A DNA stretch of 64,000 nt, from the IMG/VR virus record IMGVR_UViG_3300014969_000017, positions 8,795 to 72,794 of that record; one strand, given 5' to 3'. Position 1 is the first letter of the stretch. Each line of letters opens with the position of its first letter. A model generated the notes under the pieces. The model was not told the origin of the DNA. It saw only the letters and a program-made list of their open reading frames with translations, and made no database searches. This document shows, piece after piece, positions 9,045 to 54,523 of the stretch. This stretch comes from a virus. Its lineage: Duplodnaviria > Caudoviricetes. The position numbers were made by a program, and so were the translations under genes.

Positions 9045-9652
9045 GGCTGCACCTGTACGGTCATCCCGTTCGGACCTTTGCTGACGACCTTGTACTTGAG
9101 GCCACGCGGCAGAATGACTTCCTGCTGCCGGGCATACCGGTGGTCGGTGCCGATCTCCTCGTTGACGTTGATGTGACCCAGTCCCTTGGGCGCGAGCACG
9201 GTCAGTGTCGATTGCTTGGCCTTGTCCGCCACGCCGATGTCGTCCTGAATCTTCGCCAGCGCCGCCGGGTCGGCCGTCGTGGAGACGAACCCATCGTCCT
9301 GATACACGTCGCCCACGTCCAGCGAGGCCACCACGCTGGTGGGCACCGTGCGACTCAGCGTCGTGTCTTTCGGCAGGCGATTCCGCGTCATGTGGGTGTC
9401 CATCTCCAGCACGTCATTGCGATTCGCCCAGCGCGGTCCCTTCCCTGCCCGAAGATGCTCGTTGATGTAGCGAGCGCCGCCCAGCGTGTACTCGCTGACG
9501 GCTTTCTTGACGGCGTACGTTCCCCACCGCCAGCGTTGGCCCTCGGTATCGCTGTCGCCGCCCTCGCCCTCGGTCCACTGGTTGCCGCGAAAGGGATGCC
9601 CTTCGACATCGCCAAGGCTGAGGAGCGCGAGCTTCTCGCGGTAGGCGGTCAC
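9041..9652 (-). CDS. ADP-ribosyltransferase (VIP2/C3-like, R-STT-QxE)
   Basis: YINEHLR, LSR, GFVSTT, QQEVILPRG. Confidence 0.8.
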   Translation of the reverse strand: MTAYREKLALLSLGDVEGHPFRGNQWTEGEGGDSDTEGQRWRWGTYAVKKAVSEYTLGGARYINEHLRAGKGPRWANRNDVLEMDTHMTRNRLPKDTTLSRTVPTSVVASLDVGDVYQDDGFVSTTADPAALAKIQDDIGVADKAKQSTLTVLAPKGLGHINVNEEIGTDHRYARQQEVILPRGLKYKVVSKGPNGMTVQVQP

Positions 9653-15970: not shown

Positions 15971-16200
15971 CAGTACAACTTTCTTGGGTAGTCCGGCGTG
16001 GGCGATACCCACGTGCCGCCCCAGACATTCAGGATGTGCTGCGCAAGACGCGCATCCTCAGTCGGCGCATAGTGCCCGTTCTCCGGCGGCTGCATCGACG
16101 GGGCGTTCAGCAACTCCGCGAACACCGCGTTCTCCGGCACCGACACGACGCCATCGCTGACCGTGACCGTTTCCCCGGTCGAGAGCTTGAGGGTGATCAT
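15970..16200 (-). CDS. small hypothetical protein (possible inhibitor/immunity partner)
   Basis: 76 aa ORF translationally coupled between two effector genes. Confidence 0.45.
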   Translation of the reverse strand: MITLKLSTGETVTVSDGVVSVPENAVFAELLNAPSMQPPENGHYAPTEDARLAQHILNVWGGTWVSPTPDYPRKLY

Positions 16201-17429: not shown

Positions 17430-20400
17430 GACCGCGCCTTCTGTTGATGCCACGCGTGCATGCCCTTCGTGAACGCGACCCACGCGGACTTGGGACCGAG
17501 TCCCGTCGATTGCAGGCGAATCTTGCCGTCCGCCACCGACGCCTTGGCCGGTTCTTCATTCCACGACTTGGGCGCGATCAGCCAGCGCGTGACCTCGGCC
17601 ACGGTTTCGTTGATCGCCGTGTCGTACGTGCCGTGTCCACGCACACGCACGGCTTCAGGCGTCCAGTACGACTTCGCGTAGGCGCTGTGGCCGTTCTCTT
17701 TGATGATCTTGTCCGAGAGGCCCGTGAACATCTTCCCGTCGTGGAGGTTGGCCCACACCGCCGACGCGGGAAACTCTCGCGCCAGTTGCTCGCGCATCCC
17801 CGGCTTCACCGTCGTCTCCCCGAACCGGTGCGGCTGGTCGAACCGCTCATAGAACCAGTCCGTGCCCTTCTCGTCGTTGTAGTGCCCGGACAGCACCTTG
17901 TACCGCTCGTCCTCGGCTTCCAGTTCGTCTTTGAACTGGTCGTAGATCGCATGCGAGACTTCGTGCGCCGCGATCCCTTTCACGGCTGGCACGTCCCCGT
18001 ACGCAAGGTTCCGGGCGTTGATTTCGATCTGCTTCGTGGCCGGGTTGTAGTGCCCACCCTCCCGGAATTCCTTCGTGCCCACCGTGAATGTCGATGGCTC
18101 CTTGTCCACAACGTGAATCGTGGACGGATCGACGCCCATGTCCTTCGCCACGGCGTGCGAGAGGTTCGTGATCACCTCTACGCGCATCGGGGACGCCTGA
18201 TCGTCGTATGCCTTCTGCGCAGCCTTGGCGGCATCGTACGCAGCGAGCATCGCGTCTTTCGTCGCGCGGAAGTCCGGGTCCGCATTGCGCCGGGCCTCTA
18301 GCGCCTCGGCGCGTCGGCCGTACTCCTCGTCGCTGGCTGGCGGAATCAGCAAGCTCTCCCACGTGCCGTACCGCTGCTCGACCAGTCTGATCGACGCCCG
18401 GTGCGCTTCCTTCGCATCGTGCAAGGCGGCGTCGGCCGCGCGTGAGGCCACCAGCCGCTCCACCCACTTCCGCCGCTCTGGGCCAGCCCCTTCAATCGTC
18501 GCCAGTGCCTCGGTGTCAGCAGACTCGGTGTCACGCTGCACAAACGCGCTCGGTCCCTCACTGGACGATCCGCCCACCTCGCCGGGACGGCCTGCGTGAC
18601 CGAAGTTGCCAGAGCCGGGACCACCGAGATCGAGCGAGGGCAAAGTTTCCCGCCGAGAAACTTTGCTACTCAGGTCTTTCTTCCCCTCGCTGCTGCCGCC
18701 GCCGATATATTCCAGCACCACGTCGATGGGTTCGACCGCCTTCATCTTCGGATCGGACGACGTGATACGCCGGGGACCGCGCTGCACGCTGACGATGCGG
18801 AACTGCGCTCCGCTCCCCAGCAGGATCTCGGCCTCGCTGCGCTGGTTCGTCTCGTGCAGCCGATCCATCTTGATGGTCGGCTTTGCCGTGAAATCCGGGC
18901 GCGTGTAGTCGCTGGCCTTGAGGCCGTTCGGTGTCCCGTCGTCGTTAGTCAGCCATTCCGGGTGATCGAACACGGCCGGGTCTTGCACCTTGGGGTACGC
19001 GTAGTCCACACGGCGGAGCGTCTCCACCGGCGCGACCTTGGTACCTGCTGGCAAGATGATAGAGATCCGCATCGGCGCAGCGACCTCGTCCTGCCGCGTG
19101 TAGATCGCGCTCGACCCTTCCTTGTCCGCGTAGCGTTTGTAGAGGCTCTCGGCCTTCCCGCCCAGCACGTAGCTGTCGAGCCGATTGCCCGGATTGCCCA
19201 GCATCGTGGAGGTGAAGCCGCGTTCCTCCGTGATGCCGCCCTCCTGCGCCTTCAGATCCTCGTACGACAAGCCGGGCACGTAGGCCGCACGCGTCACTTC
19301 CATCGGCTCGGGGAGCACGTACCCGTGCTCGCGAATCAGGCTGTTGATCGCCGCAACATGCTTGTCCAGTTCCCGCGCACGCGCCCGATCCGGCACCGCT
19401 CGCTGGACGCTGTAGAACACCTTCTCGCCGGTCGCCGGATTGACCGTGAACGCATTCCGGATGATGCGACCATCCTCGACCTTGTTGATGGGATCATCCG
19501 GATCGTACGCCTTCGCCTCGCTCTTGCCCGTCGGCCTGAACGCGGCAATCTCCGCCTCGGTCGCCGGGCGCACAAACTCATTCACCGTGTCCGGCACGAA
19601 CGACCCGCGCAGTTGTGCGTTGATGTCCGCGTAGCTGAACCCGGCGTAGTTGTTGACGGCCTCCACCTCGTGGGGTGGCAAACTCCGGACGTACGTCTCC
19701 ATCTCGGGACGCTCGTGCCAGTCGTACCCTTCGTTGCCTTTGAACTGGCGCACGGCCTGCGTCACGCCAGCGCCACCGCCCACCACGTCGGTGTACTGGT
19801 TCCCCCGGAACGGATGGCCCTCCACATCACCAAGATTGATGGACAGATGGTGCGGCTTCGCGATCAGCGCATGAATCGGAGCCAGCACCGACGCGTGCTT
19901 GAACGTGTGCTTCCCGGACGGCTCCTGCGTCATCTGCCGCGCGACGAACGGATACGACGAGGCGTCGGCATGGAAGAACGCCAGTTGCAGCGTGGCGAAG
20001 TCCGTCGCGTTCATGCCGACCTTCTGGGCCTTCGCGCCCAAGATGGTCGCGACCTCCTGCGGCGTGCGCTGGGACCGCATGCCTTCGTGCGCTCGCAGCA
20101 GCGGCCCGATCATGTCGTGGTTCAGCAGTTCGGTCGCGAGCGACACGTCCCGTTCCGTGAAGCCTTCCCGGCGCAGGACGCGTTGCAGGATCGGGATGGT
20201 GTGTTCGTGCTGCGAGCCGCCCGACTCCCGCGCGTCGGCCTTCCCGATGTCGTGCAGCGGAATCGCTGCGGCCATCAGCTTGCCCACGTCGGACCCGAAC
20301 CGGCCGGAGATCCCAGACAACTCCTCGGGCGTCAGTTGCGTGGCCCACGTGCGACCCACGTCGCGCGTGTGCGCCTCGATGCTGCCCATCTCGGTGTAGC

Positions 20401-23400
20401 TGGACTTCGCGTACCGGCTGGCAACCTCGGGATACTTCTCCTTGAACGCGGCCATCGACTCGGACACCGACCCGGCCGCGAAGCGACCGCTCTCGTCGCG
20501 TGGATGTGAGCCTTCATCCCAGTCGAGCATGAACGACAGTGCCAGCTTGCGCGAGCCGACTTCCGTCTCCGTCCACGGCCCGTGGTTGCGCGTCCGCAGC
20601 ATGTTGATGGCTGAGTGCTCGGCGGTGTACTTCGCCTCGGGCTTGGCTTTCACCAGTCCGTACCACCGGCCCTTGTTCATCTCCACGCCGGTGGTCGGGT
20701 CTGCGACCGTCGTGGCCGACTCGGCCCACGCGTGATCGAACGTCTGCCCCTCGCCGTTCGTCACCTTGCCGTGGACAAGCACGTAGCCATCGCGCTGGCG
20801 CACGAACCGCGCCGCGTTGCGGAAGCATTCACCTTTCTCACCGGCGGGGATGTCCGTCACCGTCTCCGCCGACGCAGGCTCCACCGACGCCACCATCGTG
20901 GCGTGGCTGACGTTCATGCCCTCCTTGGTGCCGTTGTATTCCGAGTCCACCTCGGTGCCGCCCGACTTCTTCTGCGTGATCCACGACCGGGATTTCCGGT
21001 CGTACCAACTCTCGACCGTGGAGCCATCCGCACTGGTCGATTTCTTGGCTCCGTGTGGCGTGCCGCGTCCACCTTCATGCGTCCACTGATTCCCGTGGAA
21101 CTCGTGACCCGGCACGTCCCCGAGATGTACGGGGTCCGCTGCCATGTCGATGTAGTCCTTGAACGCACGCGGGTCGCCATCGATCTTGTCGATGAGGATG
21201 TCGTCCTTCGTGAACTGGACGCCCTTGGTCTTCTGCCACGTGTAGCCGCCGCCGGTTTCGTACGTGCTGGGCGGGATGTCGATGGAGTAGACGCCGTCCT
21301 TCAGTTTCGCGACGACATAGACGTGCTGCTCTCCGATCTGCTGACTGACCGTCGTGGCCTCGACGCCTTCGTCAATCAGCTTGCTGGCGATCTCGTCTGC
21401 GATGATGTGGCAGATGCCACCACCCGCATAGCAATCCGGATCCTCGTCCCAGTCGTCGTACACCTTCTGCGCGGCAGCAGCGAGCGCAGGAGCGAACTTG
21501 GCCTCCACGTCTTTGCCGGTGTGCTGGGGTTCGTCCGGATCCTCGTCGTCGCCTTCCCCATCAGTCCATTGATTGCCTCGGAACGGGTGCCCATCCACAT
21601 CCCCGAGATGCTTCTCCGCCTTCTTCAGGAACATCTGGGTGAGCGAGGCTTCGTACCGTCGCGCCTCGCGCTCGATGTCGCGCTGCACTTCCGCGACGAC
21701 CTCGGGCGGTACGTCGAGGCCGGGCGGCGGCACGAACGTCCACGCGTCGGGCTTGTCGGCTGAGAGCACGAACCACTGGCGTGCCGCGATGGGCGTCTCC
21801 TTCCGCTGCGCCGCTGGCTTTGGTCGGTACGTGAACGTGCCCCGGTAGCCAGCCTTCGCTTCCTCGCTGTTCCAGCCGATGCGCTGGTGGAAGCCCTCGA
21901 ACTCGTACACGTCGGCGCGATGCGTGTCGGGGTTGAGAATCACCGTGAGCGTGCGGCCCTTGACCGGGCGACCGATGTTCTTGGAGATTTGCTTCGTCGC
22001 CCGTTCCTTGCGGACGAGAATCTGTTCTTCCTTGCTGTCGTTCCAGCGAGCCTTGTCCGCCTCGGACATATCCGCCAGCATGGCCTTCTCGGCCTTGCCC
22101 GGCTCCCCGATGGTCAGCCGCCACTGCTGTGCGCCCGTGGTGTTTCCGGCGCTCCCAGCCTTGACCTCGATGACCTCGCCGCTGCCGTCGTCGTTGATCG
22201 ACACGAGGTCGATGGGGAAGTTGGGTTGCCCGACGTTGGACGCGTAGACGCGGTCCTTCTCCTGCTGGGTGAGGTACTCCGCGACGATGGCCTCGCCAAT
22301 CGCGCCCTGCTCCGGCTTGGTCAGCTTCGTCTTGACGCCGCCGGGATCGCAGCAGGCACGCTTGTCGCCCTTGACCGGCTCGATGCGGTAGTCGCGTGAC
22401 GCGGCCGGGTACGCATCCGTCCACTGGTTGCCGTGGAACTCGTGACCGGGAAGGTCGCCCAGTAGCAGTGCGAGCCTGTCCCGGTAGGTTAAATCTCGCC
22501 CAGTGCTCGCGCCTCCCGCAGCGCCAACCCGCCATGCTTGGCGACCCAGTCGGCTCCCTTGAGTCGCTCCAGCTTCGCTAAGAAACGTCTTTCCGCCGGA
22601 CTCTGTGCGCTTGGCGGCAGCGTCGGCACGTCGGGTGACGGCGTGCTTGCTGGCGATGGCGGTGGCGTCTCGTTTCCCTTGGTCGTAGTCGTCATAGTAG
22701 TTATCCCCCGGTTCATTCGGCGTCTGCCACAGGAACTCGTCCGCCAGTCGCTCGCGGATGTCCTCGACCGACTGGGCGTGCTGATCCAGTGCGAGGAAGA
22801 TCACATCCGGATGATCGTCCTTCTCGTAGTTCCAATCCTTCGGCGCGTACTCCGGGTTGAACGCCATGCGTCCGGTTTCGTGCAACCCGAACTGGGTGTA
22901 CAGCAACGGCAGGTACCCGTCGTACGCATCGGCCGTCTTCCCCCCGTCCGCAATCATCTGGAGCAACACTTCGCGTGCCGCGCCGGACGGCCCGTCGTTG
23001 TTGAACAGATTCCCCATGTCGCCGCCCGGCGTCATCGCGCCGCCGACCGTGCCGTCCTTCGACAGGTACAGCTTCTGGCCCTTCAGATCATCCGGCGTCA
23101 ACGGCGACAGGAACGCCATCCGCGAAGACTTGTTCCGCGCCTCGATGAATTCGTGCGGGGTTGGCTCGTGCAGAGGAACCGTGCTGATCTTCTCGCCGTC
23201 GCCGCCGCCACCATCCGCCGACCCACCCACTTCACCGGGCCGTCCGGCATGCCCGAAGTTCCCGCTGCCGGGACCACCGAGGTCTATACTACCATTGTCC
23301 CGCCCGTTCGGCAAGTTCTCCTGCCAGTCGAGCACGAGGACCGCGAGGTCGTCACCCGAGAGCACGGTCAGCGCCTCGCCTGCGAGACGGTCGGCCTCCT

Positions 23401-24100
23401 CGGCCCCGGCGTAGTCCTTCGCTGTCACCGTGCCCGTCGCGTGGGTGATGAACGTGACCGTCACGTCGCAGTTGTCGTTCTGCACATCCGGGTGGTGATT
23501 GGCCTCGTTGGCCGCATCCATCAACGCCGAGATGAACGTCGCGCACGCCCGGAGGTTCGGGAACGTGATCTGCCGCGTCAGCCCCGCATCGCCCAGTTGC
23601 CAGTCCGGATGCAGGCCGGGCTTCGCATCGCGCAGCGTCAACTGGACACCGCGCCGATGTAGCCCTCGGAGTACCGGCACGAAGTCGCCGGTGTCGGCCT
23701 GCTCGAACTCCCACACCCGCGCCGGAAGCGTCTCGTCGCCGCGCAGGACGGCCGCGCCCAGTCGCGTGTGTCCTTCCTGAATGACCCACCGCTCGCGACC
23801 GCTCCGCATCACCACGTGCGCCACGTCCGGCGGATCACGCCGGGGCTTGACGACATACGCCGACAGCCCGGCCACCGGCAGCAAGTCCCGTGTCGGCTCC
23901 AGCGTGTCGAGCCGCACGGACTGCACGGCGTTCTGGGTCGTCTTGCGATTGAGCGGCACCTTCAGCGTCGTGACCGGTGCCCGGAACACATCGGCGGCTC
24001 GCACCGCCAGCGGAATCGTCGGCGTCGAGGTCGTGGGCAGTCGGTCCAGCGCCTGCAAGCCCGGCACGGCCTCCCGCTGGGGCGCAGGCGCGGCACTCAC
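17426..24100 (-). CDS. 2224-aa polyvalent polyprotein (ParB-like, PCD-like, GNAT-like, PD-(D/E)xK, two Cys-His domains, HD, ART, zincin)
   Basis: Motifs EGHTR; NHHPDV...THA; DAYDGYLPLLYTQFG; GAIGE...IDLV...EVKAG; GICHIIA...HVYV; CFRNA...HAW...DPT; LHDIGK; FTSTM...EAEILL; HEVSH; domains separated by tags. Confidence 0.75.
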   Translation of the reverse strand: MSAAPAPQREAVPGLQALDRLPTTSTPTIPLAVRAADVFRAPVTTLKVPLNRKTTQNAVQSVRLDTLEPTRDLLPVAGLSAYVVKPRRDPPDVAHVVMRSGRERWVIQEGHTRLGAAVLRGDETLPARVWEFEQADTGDFVPVLRGLHRRGVQLTLRDAKPGLHPDWQLGDAGLTRQITFPNLRACATFISALMDAANEANHHPDVQNDNCDVTVTFITHATGTVTAKDYAGAEEADRLAGEALTVLSGDDLAVLVLDWQENLPNGRDNGSIDLGGPGSGNFGHAGRPGEVGGSADGGGGDGEKISTVPLHEPTPHEFIEARNKSSRMAFLSPLTPDDLKGQKLYLSKDGTVGGAMTPGGDMGNLFNNDGPSGAAREVLLQMIADGGKTADAYDGYLPLLYTQFGLHETGRMAFNPEYAPKDWNYEKDDHPDVIFLALDQHAQSVEDIRERLADEFLWQTPNEPGDNYYDDYDQGKRDATAIASKHAVTRRADAAAKRTESGGKTFLSEAGATQGSRLGRQAWRVGAAGGASTGRDLTYRDRLALLLGDLPGHEFHGNQWTDAYPAASRDYRIEPVKGDKRACCDPGGVKTKLTKPEQGAIGEAIVAEYLTQQEKDRVYASNVGQPNFPIDLVSINDDGSGEVIEVKAGSAGNTTGAQQWRLTIGEPGKAEKAMLADMSEADKARWNDSKEEQILVRKERATKQISKNIGRPVKGRTLTVILNPDTHRADVYEFEGFHQRIGWNSEEAKAGYRGTFTYRPKPAAQRKETPIAARQWFVLSADKPDAWTFVPPPGLDVPPEVVAEVQRDIEREARRYEASLTQMFLKKAEKHLGDVDGHPFRGNQWTDGEGDDEDPDEPQHTGKDVEAKFAPALAAAAQKVYDDWDEDPDCYAGGGICHIIADEIASKLIDEGVEATTVSQQIGEQHVYVVAKLKDGVYSIDIPPSTYETGGGYTWQKTKGVQFTKDDILIDKIDGDPRAFKDYIDMAADPVHLGDVPGHEFHGNQWTHEGGRGTPHGAKKSTSADGSTVESWYDRKSRSWITQKKSGGTEVDSEYNGTKEGMNVSHATMVASVEPASAETVTDIPAGEKGECFRNAARFVRQRDGYVLVHGKVTNGEGQTFDHAWAESATTVADPTTGVEMNKGRWYGLVKAKPEAKYTAEHSAINMLRTRNHGPWTETEVGSRKLALSFMLDWDEGSHPRDESGRFAAGSVSESMAAFKEKYPEVASRYAKSSYTEMGSIEAHTRDVGRTWATQLTPEELSGISGRFGSDVGKLMAAAIPLHDIGKADARESGGSQHEHTIPILQRVLRREGFTERDVSLATELLNHDMIGPLLRAHEGMRSQRTPQEVATILGAKAQKVGMNATDFATLQLAFFHADASSYPFVARQMTQEPSGKHTFKHASVLAPIHALIAKPHHLSINLGDVEGHPFRGNQYTDVVGGGAGVTQAVRQFKGNEGYDWHERPEMETYVRSLPPHEVEAVNNYAGFSYADINAQLRGSFVPDTVNEFVRPATEAEIAAFRPTGKSEAKAYDPDDPINKVEDGRIIRNAFTVNPATGEKVFYSVQRAVPDRARARELDKHVAAINSLIREHGYVLPEPMEVTRAAYVPGLSYEDLKAQEGGITEERGFTSTMLGNPGNRLDSYVLGGKAESLYKRYADKEGSSAIYTRQDEVAAPMRISIILPAGTKVAPVETLRRVDYAYPKVQDPAVFDHPEWLTNDDGTPNGLKASDYTRPDFTAKPTIKMDRLHETNQRSEAEILLGSGAQFRIVSVQRGPRRITSSDPKMKAVEPIDVVLEYIGGGSSEGKKDLSSKVSRRETLPSLDLGGPGSGNFGHAGRPGEVGGSSSEGPSAFVQRDTESADTEALATIEGAGPERRKWVERLVASRAADAALHDAKEAHRASIRLVEQRYGTWESLLIPPASDEEYGRRAEALEARRNADPDFRATKDAMLAAYDAAKAAQKAYDDQASPMRVEVITNLSHAVAKDMGVDPSTIHVVDKEPSTFTVGTKEFREGGHYNPATKQIEINARNLAYGDVPAVKGIAAHEVSHAIYDQFKDELEAEDERYKVLSGHYNDEKGTDWFYERFDQPHRFGETTVKPGMREQLAREFPASAVWANLHDGKMFTGLSDKIIKENGHSAYAKSYWTPEAVRVRGHGTYDTAINETVAEVTRWLIAPKSWNEEPAKASVADGKIRLQSTGLGPKSAWVAFTKGMHAWHQQKARS

Positions 24101-27688: not shown

Positions 27689-30600
27689 CTACGTCGGGAA
27701 GTTCCTGCCGCCGACGTAGCCGCGCCAGCGACCGCCGCCGTTGAGCGTCGAGAAGCCAAGGATCATCGTGCGCCCCGCGCCCGGCCACACCGGCACAACG
27801 TCCTCGTCCCATACGGTGCCAGTGGGATACGTCACCGCCCCGACGGCCGCACCCATGTCGAACTGAATGGAGCAGACGTACTCGACGCCGGACGGCGGCA
27901 GGTTGCTGAACTTGATGTTGAAGGAGCCAGCGATGCCGGACGCCTGAAATGCACTACCCGTCTTCAAGTCGAACGTGAGATTCGTGGTCGGGCCGTCATA
28001 CACCGGCACTGCGCCGATGACCGTGACCGGACGACGCTGGCTCACCGTCAGCGAGTCGGCATCGAAGTTCAGTCCGATGACACCCTGCGAATCGCGCAAC
28101 GACACCGCGCACCCAGCCGCGTTGCCGGTGTAGATGACAGCACCGCCCGGATACGCGAACTCGTTTCCAGTGATCAGGAGCCGTGCGCCATGCGCAGTGT
28201 CAACCACGCCGCCGCCGCCACCGATATACACATAGCCGTTGTCCGCGCCATCCAGCGTGTCCCGCACGATGGTCGCGCCATTGCCGCCACCGCCGTCTGC
28301 CGACCCGTCGGGGCCGAGCACGATGCGACCGTTCGACAGCAGCGCCGCACCGGTCGCGCCGTCGATGGTCAGCGCCGGGTTGCCATCGGAGCGACAAATG
28401 ACCGTCTTCGCATTGGCGACGTTCCCCGGCTGCAACTGGACGCGACCGGGATTGTTGTTCTGATTGCCAGCGACGAAGATGTACGCCCCGCGCAAATGAT
28501 CCACGACACCAGCGCCACTTAAGATCAGGTAGCTGGTGTCACTCGCAGCAGCCGTCGCCAGATGCAGCGCCAGCGGTGATGCCCCGCCGACAATGTCGCC
28601 GCCGACCGTGAGTGCCTTCGTCGTCTTGTTGAATGTCAGCCCGGCATCGCCAGCGAACACGCCGCCGTCGTTGAACTGAAGCTGCGTCGTCGCACCGCCC
28701 GGCACGCCGCCGACCGCGTTGAGTGTCGTGCCGCTGAACGAGAGGTTCGTGCCCAGCACAATCGGTTCGGGCTGACCGGGGCCACTCGCACCCCCGCGCC
28801 CGAGGAGCCGCGCCTGCACGAGGTCGGGCACGAACGCTGGATTACCCTGCGGACCTTGTGGTCCTTGTGGTCCCTGATCGCCCTGTGGTCCCTGTGCTCC
28901 GGTCGCGCCAGTCGGACCCTGCGCTCCAGTCGCGCCCGTCGCACCCGTTGCGCCCTGCGGCCCTTGCGGTCCCACCGGTCCCGAGACACCGGGCGCGAAC
29001 ACGCCGTCATCGCGCAGGAACGTCGTCGTCCCACCGGGGAATCCCGCGAGCGCCGTGATCGTGATCGGATCGACACCGCCGACCGCGTGCGTCGGCGCAT
29101 GCGCAACGACGGCCGCGCTCGCGCCGCCGACCACGACCCAGTTCGTACCGTTCCACCGGCCGAGGACGTGCTTCGTGCCGCCGGTCGCAATCACGGCTCC
29201 GTTCACATCGGTCGAGGCGTCGAGGAAGCTGGCGAGCGCCCCGGTCGTCTGTCCGGCGATCCCTGCGACCGGTACTTCCTGAAGTTCGAGGCGGTTCTGC
29301 AACACGACCACGGGACCGGAGATCGCACCGTTCCATCGGAACTGCCCCGCCCCATTACGGTCGATGAACGCGGGTCGTCCAATCAGCGAGCCGTCGTCGT
29401 TCTCCAGATCAAACTGGAGATACCCGCCGGTCGTCCAGACGTGCCACCGTCGCTGGTCCGCTGGACGCGCGGTGTCGATCAGCACGAGGCCGGGGCTGTC
29501 CGATTGCACGAGCGCGGGATTCGCGATCCCCGCAGGCGCGTTCATGACGCCGAGGCGATCTACCCACCACGTCGCACTCGCGCCGCCCGGCGTCATCACC
29601 GCAATCGCGGGATCGACCTGCGTCAGCGTCGGCCAGAACTCGACCGCCGCGCCGACTGCTGGACTGCTGTCCTGATAGCGACGACCGAACTGCACCTTCC
29701 CTGCGCCGCCGCCCTCACTCGGCGTGAAGACGATCTGTCCGCCGACGATCTTGAATAGGAGACGGCCACCCGCCGACAAGCCCCAGCCGACGTTGTCGAG
29801 GCCATCGGTGTTGCCGAAGAACCCGACGGTCGCCTTCAGCGGCGCATCGGTGCGGCCGAACTCCAAGTTGCCGGAGTCGAACTCCGGGTGCAACCCGATG
29901 GTGTAGGCGCGGCTGTTCGGCCTGTCTTGGAACGACAAGAGCGCGTCCGGGGCCATCAGCAACGGATGTGTGCTGAAGATCGGCTGGACACCCGGAGCCT
30001 GCGAGATGAGCACCTGACCAAGAGGTGCCGTCGGCAACGTCGCGTTGTCGCCGGGCGTGCCTTGCGGACCTTGCGGACCCTGTTCGCCTTGTGCGCCTGT
30101 CTCGCCCTGCGGCCCGATGGGACCAGCGGGACCGACAGGTCCGATTGGCCCCTGCGGCGCGACGGCGACGACCACGAGCGCGATGGGCTTGTTGTTGCCC
30201 ATCAGGCCAGAGCCGCCAATTTCTAGCAGCGCGACCCGAATCTCGAACCAATCAACGTAGGAGATGTACTCGACCAGTTCCCACTTCTGGTACACCACCG
30301 CGATGTCGCGGTCCTGCACGTAGATGATCGAACCGGGCACAAGGTTCGCGAACATCAGGTGCGCGTCGAACCCGTCCGTGGTCAGCCAGTCGATGTACAG
30401 CGAGGTCGCCGCCAACTGGTCAACGTCGTTCCACTTCACGTTCCCCGCGCCGGGATCGTTCTGGCTGGTCTGCGCGTTCATCCGGTACGGGAACCACGAG
30501 GCCGACGGCGACGGATCGCCCTGCTCGCCCTTCGGTCCCTCCGGTCCCTCGATGCCCTGAATGCCCTGCGGCCCCTGTACGCCCTGCGGACCTTGAACGC

Positions 30601-31975
30601 CCTGCGGTCCCTCCGGGCCTATCGGGCCGAGTGGCCCTTGCACGCCTGCGGGTCCGGGTGGCCCCTGCACGCTCCCGGTATCGACCCACGTGTCCGTGTC
30701 GTCGTCCCACACCCAGAGGTGGCCGGTGTCCGCCGCGATCCATGCGTCACCGGGCGCACCAACCGGCGGCAGATCGCCTGCTGTCGGCACGCTCCCGTGG
30801 ATCGCGAGGCCAGCGCCGGGATCGCCCTGCGGTCCCTCTGGCCCCTCCGGGCCGGGCACGCCTTGCGCACCCTCTGGCCCTTGCGGCCCGGCGGGTCCGA
30901 TGTCTCCGGTCGCGCCCGTGGCTCCGGCTGGCCCTTGCGCACCGGTCGCACCCTGCTGTCCCGGATCGCCCGGTATGCCTTGAGCGCCCGTCGGCCCGGT
31001 CGGCCCGGTCGCGCCCGTCGGACCCGTCGCACCCGGATCCCCTTGCGGTCCCTGCGTCCCCTGCGGCCCCTGCGGTCCCGGCGGACCTTCCGGGCCTTGC
31101 ACCTGTCCGGCATCGATCCAAACGCCGTTCGCCGCATCCCACACCCAGAGATGCCCGGAGTCCTCCGCGAACCACGCGTCACCGGGATCGCCCGGCGTCG
31201 GCAGATCACCAGCGGACGGCACGCTGCCCTGCACCGAGAGGCCGGTGCCGGGATCGCCCTGCTCGCCCTGCGGACCTTCGGGACCGACTGGTCCCTCTGG
31301 CCCCGGCACGCCTTGCGGCCCCCGTGCGCCATCCGCACCGGTCGCGCCCGTCGGCCCTCGCGGTCCCTCTGGGCCGTCCGCGCCGGGCACGCCTTGGATG
31401 CCCTGAATGCCTTGCTGTCCGGGCGGACCCTGCGGCCCCTCGGGACCAACTGGCCCCGGATCGCCGGTGTTGCCCTGCGGTCCCTGCGGCCCCTGCGGCC
31501 CGTCGAGGCCCGGAGGTCCGGCCGGACCCATCGGACCATCAGCACCCGGCTGACCGTTCTGCCCGTCAGCACCGGTCGGGCCTTGTGGTCCCGGCGGTCC
31601 GGGCGGTCCCAGATCGCCTGCTGGTCCCGTTGGTCCCTCGGGTCCGGGCGGACCCTGCACGCCGAGCCTCAGCGAGTCGAGCGTGTGGCCGGTGATGCCT
31701 GCGTAAATCTGATCGCCCACCACCACCACGCGTTCGCGGAACGGTTCCTCCGCGAGGCGCTGGATGGTGAACACATCCCCCGCCGTCTCGATGACGCGGA
31801 CGATCTCGGCGTTGGGATAGATCGGGAGTTCATTCGCGGCGCAGATGACCGCATTGAACGGCGGCGCAGGGAAGCGCACGCCGTGGCCCGGCTGCACGGA
31901 CAGCGAGGTACCGGTGTTGGCGGGTACCGGAGCACCCGCCACCGTGGAATAGGAAAAGTTGCGAAAGTCGTCCAC
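27689..31975 (-). CDS. collagen-like fibre protein
   Basis: Long Gly-X-Y tracts interrupted twice by GSVP.AGDLP...GHLWVWD modules; start trimmed to GTG 31975. Confidence 0.85.
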
Positions 31976-32018
31976 CGGTCCCGCTTCCGTTTCGACTGTG
32001 CCGCCGCCGCCGCGACGG

Positions 32019-32483
32019 TTACTTCGCGAACGGGAACGACTTCTTGACTTGCGCCGGACCAGCCACTTCGTCGTCAGGTGGTTCGGCGGCTTCTTCGGCT
32101 GGCGTCTCCGTTGCCTCGTGCGCGGCACCTTCTTCGCTGGTGTCCGTCGTCACGTCTGGCTCGACGCCGACCGTCTGACCGTCGTCCGTCTCGTACTCGA
32201 ACTTCAGCTTCTTCTTCCCGTGAACGGTCGAGACTTTGACCTTGCGCATGTCGAGCGCGAACGTGGACGCGGGGCACGTGCGTGCCTTGTCCAATCGTCG
32301 CGCGAGTTCACGGCGATCTCCGCCGCTCACGCCGTGCGCATCGCGCCACGGCCCCATGCGTTCTGCGGCTTGCGGATCCATTGGTGGCGAGCACCGGTCT
32401 TCGCACAGGATGACGGACATGCCGCCGTCGAGCGTCAACCAGAGTGCGCCATCCTCGCGAGTACCAGCGACACGCATACTCAT
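32019..32483 (-). CDS. hypothetical protein sharing its N-terminal domain with 32490-33566
   Basis: GTR.DG..W.TLDGGM.V.L..DRCSPP.DP present in both. Confidence 0.6.
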
Positions 32484-47331: not shown

Positions 47332-47730
47332 TCATGCGATCAGCATCGTCGGCGGCACCGGGAAGTCCTTCTCGCGATGCCGCCACAGGTGGAGCACGAA
47401 CGGATGATGATTCACGTACACGCTCTGACGCGGATGGTACTGCACGACCGTGTCGTCCGCGCCCCAGAAGTGGTCCTTCACGAAGCACATTTCCTTCCAC
47501 GTCGGGACGCGCATTTTGCCCTGCGCGTTCCGGGCGTGAACGCTGACGTGCTCCCAGCCGCGTGCAGTCTCCGGCACGTCGGGCAGCGTGTTGGTCCCGT
47601 CGTCCGCGATGATCGCCAGCACCCAGCCCGGCACCGGCGACAGGAGCGCGAACGCGCCCCAGCCTGCGCCCGGCGGCGAACTCCACTCGCTGCCGTCCAT
47701 GACCCGGCCCTCGTCAGGCGCTCGGAACAC
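47332..47730 (-). CDS. conserved phage protein (WEHVSV...PTW.EM..VK..FW...HLW family)
   Basis: Recognisable conserved motif string. Confidence 0.6.
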   Translation of the reverse strand: MFRAPDEGRVMDGSEWSSPPGAGWGAFALLSPVPGWVLAIIADDGTNTLPDVPETARGWEHVSVHARNAQGKMRVPTWKEMCFVKDHFWGADDTVVQYHPRQSVYVNHHPFVLHLWRHREKDFPVPPTMLIA

Positions 47731-48328: not shown

Positions 48329-49060
48329 TTAGTCGTCTAAGTCGATTCGTCGTTGACCCGGCACCGCTGGCACGAGCGGCTCGGGCTTCTTGATGTGCGT
48401 CAGCTTGGCGCGGTACGTCGTGGGCGTGAGTTTCGAGACCACCTTGCCGAGTGCGTCCAGTCCGCCCAGTGCGGCCAGTCCGGGTCCGATTCCATCGATC
48501 CCAGATGCCGCCTGCGCGGCGGCGATGCCGAGGTCCGAGAACGCCAGCCCAGCCTGCTCAAGCTGCGTGACGACGTGCGAGACATCGACCCCAATGACGC
48601 CGTCCAACTTCCCGATAACGCCGCCGCCGACACCGCCTCCGGCGCTGTACCCACCGCCGTTGCCGCCGCCAACATACGTGCTGTTGCCGCCCCCGCCGCC
48701 GCCCCACTCGTTGACGACACTGCCGCCGACCACATGACCTCCGCCTCCGCCTCCACCACCGCCGTACACGTAGTCCGCGTCGGCCGCGAACGCATGCTCG
48801 TGACCGCCCATGATCGGCTTCAGTCCCATCGCACTCTGCACGGTGTCCTCCACCCAGTCCAAGACGCGGCTGGCGATGGCGGCGGAACTTCGCGCGTCCC
48901 GGATGTCCTCGTCGGTGATACTGAGCCGCGCGTTCCGGCCGTCGCGATCTGTCAGCGAAAAGATCGTGCAGCACCGCGTCGGGTCTTCTATTGATTGCAG
49001 CGTCCAGCCCGGTGCGACATCCATCCGCGCCAACGCGTCCATCGCCTGTTTCGAGGTCAT
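48329..49060 (-). CDS. Gly-rich hypothetical protein
   Basis: Start trimmed to MTSKQ; poly-Gly core. Confidence 0.5.
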   Translation of the reverse strand: MTSKQAMDALARMDVAPGWTLQSIEDPTRCCTIFSLTDRDGRNARLSITDEDIRDARSSAAIASRVLDWVEDTVQSAMGLKPIMGGHEHAFAADADYVYGGGGGGGGGHVVGGSVVNEWGGGGGGNSTYVGGGNGGGYSAGGGVGGGVIGKLDGVIGVDVSHVVTQLEQAGLAFSDLGIAAAQAASGIDGIGPGLAALGGLDALGKVVSKLTPTTYRAKLTHIKKPEPLVPAVPGQRRIDLDD

Positions 49061-49379
49061 GACGGCTTGCCTCCCCGGCGCATCTCGGCCTCCAGCCGCT
49101 GAAAGACGACCCACGCCGCCAGTTCGCGTCGTGTCTGCTCGGTGGGCATCATCATCTGCACTGGCTCTTGCTTGTCCTGCTGCGCTCGGATCCGCACGGC
49201 CGCGCAGGGCATGCACAGCCGGACGGCCTGCGGCGCGTGCGGCCGATACACGATGTCGGTCGCGCAATCGGCACACGCGGCGTGCAGATCATCGAGGAAC
49301 ACGCTCTGCGTGGCACAGACAAGGATAATCTCATCCTCCGGCTCGGCGCTCCTCATCTCTCGGTCCACTGCTCTACCTC

Positions 49380-50223
49380 GGCTCGCTCTCAAGGCTTGGT
49401 CCGCTCACGGGACATGGCTCGCTCTTGGCTTTCGGTGCGCTCACAAGAACGCGGCTCACTCGGACGTGACGGTGCGCTCTCCCTGACTCGGTTCGTTCTT
49501 CGTCTTCGGTCCCCACTTCGTGCTGGACTCGCTCCCATTGCTCGGTACGCTCACTCAAAGATGGCTCGTTCGAGTTGAACGGTACGCTGCCCATCCTCGA
49601 CTCGATCAATATCGACGGTGCCCTCGTTGCCTTCGGCTCGCTCCATCCGCTTTGGTGCGCTCGCCTAACATGGCTCGCTCGATACACTCGGTCCTGTCAC
49701 TCGAACGGCTCGCTCATTGGGTCCGGCGCTCGCGGATGTCACGGCTCGTTCTAAGCGCACGGTGCTCTCCACGTCCTAGACTCACTCCCAGTCACTAGGT
49801 GCTGTCTGCTACTACGGTTCACTCATCATCAACGGTGCGCTCGGCGTAAGTGGCTCGTTCCGATCCGATGGTGCGCTCTGTAACCTCGACTCGCTACCTT
49901 CCTGCGGTGCCCTCAACGACAGTGGCTCGCTCGCCATCATCGGCGCACTCTTTCATGTCCGGCTCGCTCACCGTATACGGTGTCGCCTCTCGGCATACGC
50001 GGCTCGCTCCTTGATCCCCGGTGCTCACTATCATCGCGGCTCGCTCGCTAGGTTCGGTCCTGTCGCATGACTCGACTCGCTCCCGCTTCCGGTCCCCTGT
50101 GTCGTCGCGGCTCGCTCGTGCCGCTCGGTGCGCTCGATGGTGGACGGCTCGCTCACCCAACTCGGTACTCTCAGATGAAGGCGGCTTCGCTCTAACGCCT
50201 CGGTCCCCTCTACCTTTCAGGCT
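49380..50223 (-). repeat. TIGR-like dual-repeat/dual-spacer array, part 2 (about 23 units of ~36 nt)
   Basis: Plus strand: GGCTCGCTC-N9-GGTGCGCTC-N9 with variable spacers, parsed manually. Confidence 0.85.
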
Positions 50224-50233
50224 GACGACCAGC

Positions 50234-50638
50234 TTACAGGCCGTCGCCCTCGGGGGCCGTCGGATACCACTGGCGATTCGCGAGGCCGGGCAGCAGTGCC
50301 CAGTGCGGACTCGCGTCCTTGCCGTGCTCCAGTGCGTTCTTGATGATATGGACCGCCTGATGCGTCGTGTCGTACATCACCGTGTCGGCCGAGACGCGCT
50401 GGTTGTTCGGCAGCATCACCGCCGCGCGTTCCATGCCCTCGGATTGCACGTAGCCCCAGTGCTCGTCCTCCGCCGCCAGTCGCTTCGCCACTTCTGTGAG
50501 GAAGGACAGGATCGACTCCGGCGTGTTCTGCTCCAGCCAGAGCTTGCCCTGCGGTTCACCCGAGAAGCCCACCACGACCCACGAGTGATCGGGCGTCTGC
50601 GGCATGTGCTCGGTGTCTTCGATGTTCGATTCGGTCAT
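50234..50638 (-). CDS. hypothetical protein embedded between the two array halves
   Basis: 134 aa with normal composition; GAGGAG RBS directly after a repeat. Confidence 0.65.
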   Translation of the reverse strand: MTESNIEDTEHMPQTPDHSWVVVGFSGEPQGKLWLEQNTPESILSFLTEVAKRLAAEDEHWGYVQSEGMERAAVMLPNNQRVSADTVMYDTTHQAVHIIKNALEHGKDASPHWALLPGLANRQWYPTAPEGDGL

Positions 50639-50648
50639 GGCTCTCCTC

Positions 50649-51700
50649 GGCTCGCTTGTCAGCTTCGTTACGATCTCTAGTGATGGCTACTCGGTAGCTT
50701 CGGCACTCTAGTCATCAACGGTTCGTTCACCATGCACGGCACGCTTCGTTTCCTCGACTCGCTCGCGTAGTACGGTGCGCGACCACCTCGCGGCTCGCTC
50801 CACATCAACGGTTCTCTCCGGTGTACTGGCTCGCTCTCCGTCAACGGTGCGCTATGAGAACGCGGCTCGCTCGCACCTCACGGTCCTCTACAGGTGCAAG
50901 GACTCGCTCCACTCTCTTGGTTCACTTCGGATCAACGGCTCGCTACTCCACCACGGTCCGCTCGTAAGGGGCGGCTCGCTCTCTGTCAACGGTACGGCCT
51001 CTCGACTTGGCTCGCTCACTCTCGACGGTGCGCTGATTTGAAGCGACTCGCTCTCGACCCACAGGTTCTCTCGCATGACTCGGCTCACTCGTTCGCGGTG
51101 GTGCCCTCTGCTCCCACGGTTGCTCTGCGCTAACGGCACGCTCACGGTTAGCGGCTCGCTCTAGCCATGCGGTGCGCTCTTTCCAGTTGGCTCGCTCAAT
51201 CTGCCGGTACGCTCCTGCGACACGACTCGTTCGGCATACTCGGTGCGCTCGCTCATATTGACTCGTTCGTAACGCTCGGTGCGCTCACGCTACACGACTC
51301 GCTCGCTAGATTCGGTTCACTCACACCAGCCCGGCTCGTTAGAGTTGAACGGTACGCTACCCATCCTCGACTCGCTCGCACAAGACGGAACCCTCCAATG
51401 GTGCGGCTCGCTCTCCATTGCTCGGTGCGCTCAGCCATGCTGGCTCGCTCGGCTGCAACGGTCCTCACGTCGAACTCGACTCGCTCTTGTGCATCGGTTC
51501 ACTCGCCGTGGGCGGCTCACTCAATCTGCCGGTACGCTCCTGCGAGACGGTTCGCTCGAAAACGTCGGTACGCTCATCAACAACGGCTCGCTTACTTCCC
51601 TCGGTACGCTCAGTCGTGCTGGCTCGCTCGACACAACCGGGACTTCGTAGGATACGGCTCGCTCGTTCTGCTCGGGCCACTCGCCGTGCGCTGGCTCCTC
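50649..51700 (-). repeat. TIGR-like dual-repeat/dual-spacer array, part 1 (about 29 units of ~36 nt)
   Basis: Same repeats; begins immediately after the stop codon of the Nop-domain gene. Confidence 0.85.
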
Positions 51701-52528
51701 TTACTCGGCCCACGGAAAGTTTGGCACCTGAATCAGATGCGCGTGCCCGAGATGCTCGATGACGTAGGGCTTGGGCGGCATCTCGCCATAGTGCTGGCGG
51801 TAGGCGACGGTCTGCCAGTGACTGAGGAACAACTTCACGGCGTACCGCTGGGCGCGGAGATGGATGCGTGCCTGCGGCAGCAAGCCCTGCTCGTACGCGG
51901 CCTTGGTCTGCGTGTCGCGCTTCCAGTTCTTCGTCGTCAGCGCCGTCGCGGCCTGCTCGGAGAAGTCGTGATTCGCGTTCTTCGCTTCTTCCTGCGCCTT
52001 GCGCTGGACGTAAATCTTGCCGTAAAAGTCGTCCTTGTGCGCCTGCTGCTTCGTGAAGCTCTCCCCGATGATCCAGCAGAGGCGTTTCAACGCGCCATTC
52101 CACGGCCGCTTCTGCCCTTCCTTCCACACCACCGTCGGATCGAGTCCGGCGAAGCGCCAGATGTGCCCCACCGTCGGAGCCTTCGTGATGTCGATGTGCG
52201 CGAGCAAGCCTGCGCTGATCACCGGGCCGATCCCGATGATGCTCTCCGCCCACTTGCCGACCGGGTTGTTCTGGCTGTACGTGCCGAGGGCGCTCTTGAT
52301 GTTGCGCTCCAGCACCGCCGTGTTATCGAACAGCCAGCCGAGTAACTGGTGCGGCTCGCCAGCCTCCTCCAGCGTGCGTGCCTGATGCGCCGCGCGAATG
52401 CGGTCGCGTTGCATGATGTAGTAAGCATCAACTAAAAATCTGGCCTCCGTCGCGGTCAGCGTCTTCGCGGCATTCTTCAGATCGCGATTCAATTTAACAA
52501 TCGGTGCCAGATCGTCTAGTTCTTCCAT
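51701..52528 (-). CDS. Tas-like (TasA-type) Nop/IS110 C-terminal-domain RNA-binding protein without RuvC
   Basis: N-terminal coiled coil, then SIIGIGPVISAGLLAHID...IWRFAGLDP...PWN..LK, Y...K, H.RA.RYAVKLFL; no DEDD domain; abuts the array. Confidence 0.8.
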   Translation of the reverse strand: MEELDDLAPIVKLNRDLKNAAKTLTATEARFLVDAYYIMQRDRIRAAHQARTLEEAGEPHQLLGWLFDNTAVLERNIKSALGTYSQNNPVGKWAESIIGIGPVISAGLLAHIDITKAPTVGHIWRFAGLDPTVVWKEGQKRPWNGALKRLCWIIGESFTKQQAHKDDFYGKIYVQRKAQEEAKNANHDFSEQAATALTTKNWKRDTQTKAAYEQGLLPQARIHLRAQRYAVKLFLSHWQTVAYRQHYGEMPPKPYVIEHLGHAHLIQVPNFPWAE

Positions 52529-53043
52529 GTCCGCCCCGCGCGAATGGCGTTGATCGCATGACGCGACACGCCGAATTCTTTCCCGAGAGCCGCCGCATTC
52601 TCCGTCGGTCGGAGGCGAATCTGCTCTACCTGTTCCAGCGTCAACTTCACCATCGGATGCGCCTCGCCACGAGGCACAAGCTCCGGATGCTTCCGCGCCG
52701 GATGGTCATCGCCATAGAGATGCCCGTGCCGATGGCGACCCTTCGCGAGCTTGTCGTCGGTGTTGGCTTGGTCGTCCCCAAGGAATAGATGCTTCAACCG
52801 GAGACACGGCGGGTTGTCGCATTTGTGCAGCACGCCCATGCCATCCGGGATCTCACCGTGCGCGGCCGTCCACACCAGTCGATGCACGGACATCGGGGAC
52901 TTGAACATCTTGCGTCGTTGAATCAACCCGTAGCCTGCCGTCGTTCGCGCACCGGTCCATTCCAAGCAACCATTCGGTTGCTCGACCGTGCGCGATAAAA
53001 CCTCAAGCAGGAGGTCGTTGGCTTGCTCCTCCGTCATCACCAT
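52516..53043 (-). CDS. HNH endonuclease with C-terminal HTH
   Basis: CLEWTG...GYG...HRLVW...VLHKCDNPPC...HLFLG...N; its stop overlaps the tas start. Confidence 0.8.
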   Translation of the reverse strand: MVMTEEQANDLLLEVLSRTVEQPNGCLEWTGARTTAGYGLIQRRKMFKSPMSVHRLVWTAAHGEIPDGMGVLHKCDNPPCLRLKHLFLGDDQANTDDKLAKGRHRHGHLYGDDHPARKHPELVPRGEAHPMVKLTLEQVEQIRLRPTENAAALGKEFGVSRHAINAIRAGRTWKN

Positions 53044-53106
53044 CGTCGTCTCCGTCTCCGTAGGGATTCTACCGGGCACGAGGCCCGGTAGAACTCAGTC
53101 AGTCTC

Positions 53107-53832
53107 TCATGCCTGCCTGCGGCTCCGGCGAATCTTCGCCGCGATTCCGGCAAGGCCGCTGCCCATCAGAATCAGCGAGGCCGGTTCCGGGACCGGTGGC
53201 GCATCCGTGGGCGTCGGCGTGCAGCCGGGGCAGTCCCCGACACCCGGCGACCCGTCTGCGATCCACGTGCTCAACGCCCCCGTCGGCCCGATGCCCTGCA
53301 AGTGCGCCGCTGCGAAGAACGGCCCGTTGCCACCACCCGGTGCGGCGAGGAAGTTGAACGAGGCAGCGGTCAAGGTGCCCGTGATCAGATCGAGATCGAT
53401 GACCATCGAGTCGCCCTGTCCGAATCGCGCTCCGGCGCTCTCGTTGAAGTTGAACAGGAGGTCATAGATGCCGTCACCATCGGCTTGGCAACAATCCACG
53501 CCACGCGTGATGCCCGTGTAGGCTCCCGACGAATCCGAGATCAGGTTCGTCGTCACCTGTGTGGGGTTCAGCAGCGGATTCAGATTGAGATAGATCCCGC
53601 TGATGAATTCCTGCATCGACAGGTCCAGCGCCGTGAACGTGAGGCGCACGTCGAACCCGGCTCCGGCGGTCGCGTCATTCGCGTTGACGCGCAACCACGG
53701 GGCTGGATCATTCGGCAGCGTCCCGTTACTGAACTGCGTCGAGTAATCGAACGTGATGGAACTGGCTCGCGCCGGTGCGGCCACCAACACGAGCGCCAGA
53801 CACAGCGCCACTAAGAACACACATCGCTTCAT
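53107..53832 (-). CDS. secreted PEP-CTERM protein
   Basis: Signal peptide MKRCVFLVALCLALVLVAAPARA; C-terminus VPEPASLILMGSGLAGIAAKIRRSRR. Confidence 0.85.
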   Translation of the reverse strand: MKRCVFLVALCLALVLVAAPARASSITFDYSTQFSNGTLPNDPAPWLRVNANDATAGAGFDVRLTFTALDLSMQEFISGIYLNLNPLLNPTQVTTNLISDSSGAYTGITRGVDCCQADGDGIYDLLFNFNESAGARFGQGDSMVIDLDLITGTLTAASFNFLAAPGGGNGPFFAAAHLQGIGPTGALSTWIADGSPGVGDCPGCTPTPTDAPPVPEPASLILMGSGLAGIAAKIRRSRRQA

Positions 53833-54523
53833 CACACGCGCCTCCTGCTGGGGGAAAGGAAGAAAGACCCTACGTGTCGGCTTGCTGGAGAAGTTTGAGG
53901 GCCGCTGAAAACTTCGCCACCTTGTCCGCGTCCTGCTGCGCCCGTGCTCGCAACGCCGCCATCTGCTCGCGTGCGCGACGGGTCGCGTCTGCGACTTCGT
54001 CGGCCAGCGCGTCAAGGGTATCAAGGGTCGCCTCCAGCGCGGCAAGGCCGGACGCAAAATCTTCGGGCAAGGGGGACTGAGGGTCGGGCACGAACCGCGC
54101 GTCTTCTGGCAGCACCAGCACACGGTCCCGGAGCCGGTCCCCGTCTGACCGCTCGCGACGATGCGGCCGGTTCGCCGCCGCCTTCTCCATCGCCGCCTTA
54201 ATCTCCGCACGCTCGACCATCGCTCCTCCGGCATCGGGCTGTGTCGCCGTCGGAAACGTGCGGCTATCGACTACGTCCTCGACTTCGCGGCCTTTGAGAT
54301 CGCGGAAAGATGGCATCGCCCACTCCCAGAGTTGTCTAAGTCGCACGCCACACGGCGAAGCCGCGCCGGTCGATGGTCAACCGAAGTACCGTCGCGCACG
54401 TCCCGCACTGGATGGCCGTCCACGCCGTCGCGTACCGCAGACGAGCGCCGCAGTCGCACACCAGTTCGGGCAGGCGCGGCGCATCGTCTGATGACGGAGA
54501 TGGGGGCGTGTCCAGATCGTCCA

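Follow-up and report, generated by a model that had tools for sequence, protein, structure and literature searches.

The window analysed here, a 64,000-nucleotide (64-kb) stretch of the 72,794-base phage record IMGVR_UViG_3300014969_000017 (Duplodnaviria; Caudoviricetes), carries on its minus strand a gene for a Nop-domain protein, tasA, followed by two runs of short alternating repeats; all coordinates below are window positions. We read this locus, with a probability of roughly 0.8, as a TIGR-TasA system of the dual-repeat type, carried by an uncultivated tailed phage from soil or rhizosphere; its transcription, processing and RNA and DNA binding are inferred from characterised relatives. 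The initial annotation of this DNA had proposed a TIGR-Tas architecture, and that call is right on every feature that could be tested, i.e., a Tas hidden Markov model scoring above its cutoff, a Tas fold, a dual-repeat array of ~ 36-nucleotide (nt) units with shared end motifs, no nuclease domain and a location on a phage contig. The annotation had further suggested that the locus may be an uncharacterised subtype, which is not supported. Since Table S1 of Faure et al. 2025 (PMC12045711) lists an IMG protein that is a 93–94% identical ortholog of the window TasA, and since relatives whose repeats belong to the same family are common, the locus is a member of a known, already catalogued family and no new kind.

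The protein is assigned by both sequence and fold. TasA matches the NCBIfam equivalog model NF052498 (TIGR_Tas_endo, 'TIGR-Tas system RNA-guided endonuclease') at E 1.4e-58 with 198.4 bits against a cutoff of 100, over positions 1–213 of a 215-position profile, and its gene has a clear coding signature, with a G+C content of 0.83 at third codon positions (GC3) versus 0.40 at second positions (GC2). A phmmer search of PDB sequences placed 9mty_A (TasR) on top (E 2.7e-14), in an alignment spanning TasA residues 74–183 and 221–271, and also returned TasH (E 1.6e-7). An AlphaFold (AF2) model of TasA based on 48 homologs was of good confidence (predicted local distance difference test, pLDDT, 89; predicted template modelling score, pTM, 0.85), and the Foldseek ranks 1–10 for this model were all TasR or TasH chains (probability 1.0, template modelling (TM) score 0.53–0.73), after which came the recombinases IS621 and ISCro4. 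The IS110 model NF033542 of NCBIfam reached just 21.4 bits against a cutoff of 140 and covered only positions 187–264 of its 343, and the comparison with Tas and IS110 that had been suggested for this protein came down on the side of Tas. Two transposase labels were nevertheless attached to it, a marginal Pfam match to Transposase_20 (E 3.3e-4) and full-length membership in phrog_4285, labelled 'transposase'.

Ahead of the Nop domain TasA is helical, with long helices at residues 26–56 and 61–86 that are followed by the GIGP...WRFAGLDP region; the coiled coil, this region and the lack of a nuclease domain had all been read correctly from the translation. Neither Pfam nor NCBIfam revealed a nuclease domain in the protein, the only match to a nuclease family being HNH_3 at E 0.29 over 21 residues, and there was no Pfam match to DEDD. 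As neither an HNH nor a RuvC domain is fused to the Nop domain, the protein is assigned to the TasA type. Near its C-terminus, Y255 and H262 align with Y289 and H296 of SpTasH in the PDB sequence alignment, with the neighbouring E292, K293 and R305 also in register. In SpTasH, Y289 and H296 are described as the catalytic residues of a metal-independent processing of pre-tigRNA (PMC13421893), and Xu et al. (bioRxiv 10.64898/2026.09.09.750476) report the Tyr/His dyad to be conserved in dual-repeat systems. Among the 48 homologs of the window TasA, H262 is invariant (48/48) and Y255 is kept in at least 90%.

The array itself was delimited by chaining half-units, i.e., 9-mers fitting GAGCG..CC at steps of ~ 18 nt. 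This gave 107 half-units in the two sub-arrays together, or 52 full units, each with an edge repeat, then spacer A, a loop repeat and then spacer B, in agreement with the 29 and 23 units counted in the initial annotation. The first unit, which is degenerate, runs from 51700, the next base past the tasA stop codon (51703–51701), also as annotated, and sub-array 1 finishes at the ribosome-binding site of an open reading frame (ORF) of 134 amino acids (aa). Sub-array 2 finishes at the start codon (49356–49354) of a Cys-rich ORF of 99 aa. The exact edge repeat GAGCGAGCC has 23 minus-strand copies in the window, 22 of which lie inside 49380–51700, and none on the plus strand, while of the loop-repeat forms GAGCGCACC has 10 of its 12 copies in the region and GAGCGTACC all five.

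Column statistics were taken from those half-units that are spaced at exactly 18 nt (84 of 107; 41 edge, 43 loop). The edge repeat reads G-A-G-C-G-A-G-(C/T)-C and the loop repeat, more loosely, G-A-G-n-G-n-A-C-C, with C22/A10/G6/T5 at position 4 and C17/T13/G9/A4 at position 6 (n = 43). Both begin with GAG and end with CC followed by G or A, and these are the best-conserved columns. Because the first base of the supposed spacer is G or A in 39/41 edge and 43/43 loop half-units, we take the conserved part as ~ 10 nt and the freely variable part as 8 nt per half-unit. The alternation of two repeats on the minus strand thus stands as first described, whereas the loop repeat is looser than the GAGCG(C/T)ACC given for it and the conserved part is 10 nt long, not 9. 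Likewise, spacers of about 9 nt were confirmed (9 nt in 84 of 107 by our segmentation, 10 in 13, 8 in 7 and 11 in 3), but the 36-nt period is not uniform: across 52 edge-to-edge intervals it is 36 in 30, 35 in 7, 37 in 13, 38 in 1 and 40 in 1. A strict test of all three flanking repeats, which is too strict for GAAC variants, was passed by 21/52 units; several repeats deviate strongly, and degeneracy is strong in the opening two half-units and the final few. The array is therefore less regular than published ones, and its degenerate units may be only partly active. The expectation that repeat finders would miss it was a fair one, as the sole report of Tandem Repeats Finder was a 2.8-copy piece at 51205–51305.

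Table 1. Features of the TIGR-TasA locus and its immediate neighbours in the window
Feature	Position	Strand	Description
tasA	51701..52528	minus	TIGR-associated Nop-domain protein of 275 aa, without nuclease: helices of a coiled coil, Nop domain, loop with Y255/H262 at the C-terminus
TIGR sub-array 1	50649..51700	minus	59 chained half-units, ~ 29 units; edge GAGCGAGYC alternating with loop GAGnGnACC
TIGR sub-array 2	49343..50210	minus	48 chained half-units, ~ 24 units
134-aa ORF, between the sub-arrays	50234..50638	minus	GAGGAG ribosome-binding site inside the last unit of sub-array 1
HNH_3 endonuclease gene, free-standing	52516-53079	minus	Helix-turn-helix-like tail at the C-terminus of its product; 13-nt overlap with the start of tasA
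99-aa Cys-rich ORF	49057-49356	minus	Starts at the end of sub-array 2

Systems of this kind are common among viral contigs. Database searches with TasA returned 4,850 homologs at E ≤ 0.001, mostly 270–280 aa long and several on contigs of 110–126 kb, and a scan of viral contigs gave 21 related loci with 41–94% identity, four of the relatives being complete genomes of 112–122 kb (two with terminal repeats). Arrays stand beside tas in all 21, as seen by autocorrelation in 20 (period 36–39) and by 46 chained half-units in the remaining one, L001. An uninterrupted run of ~ 64 units was seen in one relative, and in two the tas gene is flanked by arrays on either side, from which we conclude that dozens of guides are normal in this clade. 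The repeats of the relatives are of GAGTGAACCA / GAGAGCACCA type, i.e., of the same family, ending in CCA or TCA, and they show register drift as well. Outside the viral contigs, a scan of genome contigs with the Tas protein gave one weak match, in a Proteobacteria metagenome-assembled genome; among cultured phages there was no DNA match and one distant tblastn match, to Microcystis phage Mvi-JY20 (27% identity).

The two closest relatives share spacers with the window at no more than one mismatch, L001 with 20 near-matches and L002 with 37, and many units of sub-array 1 are among those found in them. The common spacers usually come as A/B pairs and in blocks, the order of which differs, with insertions and losses, and one pair of the window's sub-array 2 adjoins, in L001, a pair from sub-array 1. 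The two sub-arrays of the window have one whole unit and several single spacers in common, the single spacers recurring with other partners, and direct spacer matches of at least 8 nt number 7, versus 0.5 in shuffles. We also considered complementarity or tiling between spacers and rejected it, since reverse-complement matches (3, versus 3.0 in shuffles) are at chance level. Contigs of four other soil or rhizosphere runs cover parts of the locus: a 4.4-kb contig that spans the 134-aa ORF, array 1 and tasA has 87 nt in place of 376 nt, and 667 nt are inserted between its array and tas; a contig with a 36-nt skip is also among them. These population contigs are weak support for unit turnover, as their joints lie in repeats and have short sides. 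All this suggests that the arrays change as whole units are duplicated, lost and recombined.

The closest parallels are the published dual-repeat TIGR-TasA systems, such as FpTasA of Flavonifractor plautii and MbTasA (PMC12045711; bioRxiv 10.64898/2026.09.09.750476). These systems too consist of a solo, phage-borne Nop-domain Tas protein with a coiled coil and an adjoining array of ~ 36-nt units with two alternating short repeats and two short spacers. Box-like motifs likewise stand at the ends of both repeat types, the GAG...CC(G/A) of the window mirroring the box D and box C, UG...CCA, of Faure et al. (PMC12045711). Differences lie in the box C, which reads CCG more often than CCA, in a variable core of 8 nt, in the 22/52 units that are not 36 nt long, and in an array that is split by a protein-coding gene and has no terminator after it. 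The window holds 52 units, where Faure et al. (PMC12045711) put published arrays at 'most often 5 to 15', although the relatives in this clade also have dozens. SpTasH of Salicola phage CGphi29 (PDB 9W03, 9W04, 21KL, 9VZX) shares the phage origin, the Nop fold (TM 0.60–0.73) and the aligned Tyr/His processing dyad, and SpTIGR is also described as having 16 variable nt per guide. Unlike SpTasH, the window TasA has no fused HNH domain, and the HNH protein encoded next to it is unrelated by sequence search and not conserved.

TaTasR (PDB 9MTY) gave the best PDB sequence match and the best Foldseek E-value for the window TasA, which differs from it in having no RuvC domain ahead of the coiled coil; in the absence of this domain and of any nuclease family match, cleavage by the window TasA is not expected. 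The IS110 bridge-RNA recombinases (IS621, PDB 8WT6/8WT9; ISCro4) share with it an RNA-binding Nop-like domain (Foldseek E ~ 6e-3 to 1e-2), but TasA has no DEDD/RuvC-like domain and the locus has many small guides where these elements have one bridge RNA. Archaeal and eukaryotic box C/D ribonucleoproteins (Nop5/Nop56/58) resemble the locus, following the discussion of Faure et al. (PMC12045711), in a Nop domain, a coiled-coil dimer and two guide segments with box C/D-like flanks. They differ in that neither fibrillarin nor L7Ae was present among ~ 60 ORFs scanned in the window and that the predicted target is DNA, not RNA, and no Nop5 chain was among the Foldseek matches listed for the TasA model.

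From these likenesses a working model can be drawn. Genes abut the arrays, both of which run straight into the next gene, and no promoter-like or terminator-like sites were found on the minus strand in 48900–54400; the simplest reading is therefore that tasA, sub-array 1, the 134-aa ORF, sub-array 2 and downstream genes would form one minus-strand transcription unit. TasA would dimerise through its coiled coil and bind the shared GAG...CC(G/A) ends of edge and loop repeats, and its Tyr255/His262 dyad would cut the precursor in the edge repeats to yield RNAs of ~ 36 nt. Each of these would lead a dimer to a DNA site of ~ 16–18 bp, where spacer A and spacer B would pair with opposite strands, and the nuclease-less complex would bind and bend the DNA, blocking transcription or replication rather than cutting. 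We propose RNA-guided DNA binding and blocking because TasA proteins bind 36-nt tigRNAs (Faure et al. 2025, PMC12045711) and because MbTasA, according to Xu et al. (bioRxiv 10.64898/2026.09.09.750476), gives reversible RNA-guided repression and binds its target DNA in vitro without cleavage, as seen by electrophoretic mobility shift assay. Candidate natural targets would be host genes or rival mobile elements, and the arrays appear to evolve as whole units are duplicated, lost and reshuffled, without dedicated spacer-acquisition machinery. More tentatively, and in our judgement rather doubtful as a whole, one long transcript may be matured by the Tyr/His RNase of TasA into ~ 50 guides while the same cuts free the mRNAs of the 134-aa gene and downstream genes. 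This would couple guide maturation with phage expression; the guides might then silence genes of the host or of rival elements in multiplex, and the set would diversify, with no acquisition machinery, as whole 36-nt units and half-units are duplicated, altered at single points and reshuffled.

The targets were sought by sequence. Faure et al. 2025 (PMC12045711) report a cut 5' of whichever nucleotide pairs with base five after box C, leaving 8-nt 3' overhangs, from which we derive ourselves that the site reads as spacer A and then spacer B in reverse complement; this is the geometry proposed in the initial annotation and the one that fits the published overhangs. Both geometries were searched, with full spacers at ≤ 3 mismatches or with 8-nt cores (gaps 0–2, ≤ 1 mismatch), in the record's own 72.8-kb contig and in the complete related genomes G001, G003 and G004, with permuted spacer pairs as controls. 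The spacer-site search that had been recommended thus yielded nothing above these controls. In the own contig, full spacers gave 8 and 9 matches for the two geometries versus 2–8 in controls, and cores gave 0 and 1. One candidate in a relative was followed up and dropped. The core of unit 27 (8 + 7 nt) matches 15/15 in G001 (the genome of locus L026), a TIGR-carrying phage that is only distantly related, at 11389–11403, inside a terminase-like gene (ORF 9797–11791), as does that of unit 9 with one mismatch, and the outer G and C positions do not match there. The same 15-mer occurs in viral contigs at 114 loci in 58 unrelated clusters, just 2 of which are that terminase family and the largest of which (24 loci) is an unrelated virion-like gene, so that the match is at about chance level.

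Several points weigh against the identification of a working TIGR-TasA system. The target matches in the own contig and in three complete related phages stay at the level of permuted pairs, and the one terminase-like site fell away as described. Dual-repeat tigRNAs are described as fixed at 36 nt (Xu et al., bioRxiv 10.64898/2026.09.09.750476), and since just 30/52 units here have exactly this length and several repeats are strongly deviant, part of the array may be inactive. No terminator was found 3' of either sub-array within 48900–54400, in contrast to the published layout, in which a terminator after the array is a typical, though not a defining, feature (Faure et al. 2025, PMC12045711). 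Transcription, processing and binding at this particular locus are all extrapolated, and the repression data all concern other TasA proteins and were obtained in E. coli. None of the runs recorded as RNA holds the locus.

The irregular units raise the question of whether the array is largely decayed, with a minority of units working and the rest drifting remnants. The units that depart from 36 nt, the 21 that pass the strict test and the degenerate half-units at both ends would all suit such decay, but it is unlikely given that spacer pairs, irregular ones included, are identical or have one change in relatives with 92–94% identical Tas, and that the GAG...CC ends are the best-kept columns. 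Relatives show register drift too, and hence some tolerance of length may be normal in the clade. A far more radical alternative, that there is no guide array at all and that the repeats belong to a translated repeat protein, a CRISPR array or an IS110 element, could appeal to a 36-nt period that is a multiple of three and to the two transposase labels on TasA. It carries practically no weight with us, being already refuted by stop-codon counts and domain searches. Every one of the six frames holds stops (5–19 in sub-array 1, 4–14 in sub-array 2), with a longest open stretch of 183 codons on the antisense strand, and so the translated repeat that the initial annotation had itself named as a danger to its call was not found. 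Repeats of 9–10 nt and of two kinds also stand against the single 25–36 nt repeat of CRISPR arrays, no cas families were seen in the Pfam scans of the ~ 60 window ORFs, no DEDD domain accompanies the weak and partial IS110 match, and Rfam gave no match at E ≤ 1.

Two further alternatives accept the array and differ on what it does. If the guides aimed at the phage's own genome and timed its gene expression, this would agree with the regulation of the viral life cycle that Xu et al. (bioRxiv 10.64898/2026.09.09.750476) list as a possible role; the record, at 72.8 kb against 112–122 kb for complete relatives, may moreover leave part of the genome unseen. We consider it improbable, as neither the own contig nor the three complete relatives that stand in for the missing part gave matches beyond the control level. 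The other holds that the system is a split TasH, in which the HNH protein encoded upstream of tasA acts in trans with TasA and the system cuts its targets. Its gene overlaps tasA in the same direction, its Pfam match to HNH_3 is strong (E 1e-12), the order HNH then Nop is that of the domains of TasH with its N-terminal HNH (Faure et al., PMC12045711), and L002 too has an HNH_3 gene beside tas. Nonetheless, we hold a split TasH to be very unlikely. The window HNH gene is missing from 21/21 related loci by tblastn, the PEP-CTERM protein gene being directly followed by tas in L001 and L002, and the HNH_3 gene of L002 (5740–6321, plus strand) lies on the opposite side of tas, between tas and array, and shares just 30% identity with it over 123 aa. 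No PDB sequence matched the window protein at E ≤ 1, hence none of TasH did, and its best-scoring PHROG families comprise phage HNH endonucleases that are free-standing. Such a distribution suits mobile homing endonuclease genes, as which we read both HNH_3 genes, not as partners; it looks as if such genes had landed beside tas repeatedly. The 667-nt insert mentioned above, in the contig of run X3, sits where L002 has its HNH_3 gene, between tas and array. No ParB-like partner was found either, among the 28 tas-flanking ORFs of relatives or the window ORFs scanned.

The TIGR-TasA locus is set in a record with terminase, portal, protease, major head and tail-fibre genes, and the gene order on its minus strand is PEP-CTERM protein gene, HNH_3 gene, tasA, array 1, 134-aa ORF, array 2, Cys-rich ORF, then more genes. 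The 134-aa ORF is a genuine gene, with a strong coding signature (GC3 0.87 versus GC2 0.41) and database homologs that are 97% and 55% identical. A profile search with it found 23 proteins at E ≤ 0.001, mostly of ~ 200 aa with an extra C-terminal part, in which no informative Pfam domain was seen. The ORF product itself had no match in Pfam, PHROG, NCBIfam or PDB and no usable match in Atlas, and its AF2 model (pLDDT 43) was unusable. Among the fetched DNA, tblastn placed this family nowhere but in the window, L001 and L002, which rules it out as a clade-wide partner of Tas. The Cys-rich ORF had no family match. It is followed by a gene for a Gly-rich protein (48329–49063), the coding repeat of which mimics the 36-nt period in autocorrelation, and a signal at 48617–48771 was for this reason rejected as an array.

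Upstream, the gene at 53107–54234 (minus strand), with a likely internal start at MKRCVF..., encodes a secreted protein with a PEP-CTERM sorting signal (TIGR02595, 22 bits, cutoff 16) and is kept in L001 and L002; a phage that encodes a PEP-CTERM protein suggests a host with an exosortase system. A DUF7694 gene lies ~ 1.6 kb downstream of array 2 (47332–47730, minus strand) and, in L017, directly downstream of tas (6333–6839, plus strand), which may be plain synteny. In L020 the ORF past the array (6864–10888, plus strand) encodes a 1,341-aa portal protein that also has a LAGLIDADG domain, which could belong to an intein or to an inserted homing endonuclease. Elsewhere in the window, the virion block includes ADP-ribosyltransferase ORFs at 9041–9652 and 13724–16012 (both minus strand; ADPrib_exo_Tox E 1.3e-9, ART-PolyVal E 7.9e-19), adjoined by a 2,224-aa ORF with a Pterin_4a domain (17426–24100), and a 1,479-aa tail-fibre protein (27689–32128, minus strand) has long collagen-like repeats (Pfam Collagen, 8 stretches). 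No tRNA genes were found.

While the locus leaves knowledge of the TIGR-Tas family unchanged, it offers a well-delimited case from nature of a TIGR-TasA system that is nuclease-free, with one of the larger guide sets and with close relatives and population variants. It touches two open questions about TIGR systems, namely which targets they have, for which the result here is negative for the own contig and three related phages, and how their arrays change, with units in this case being kept, duplicated, lost and reordered.

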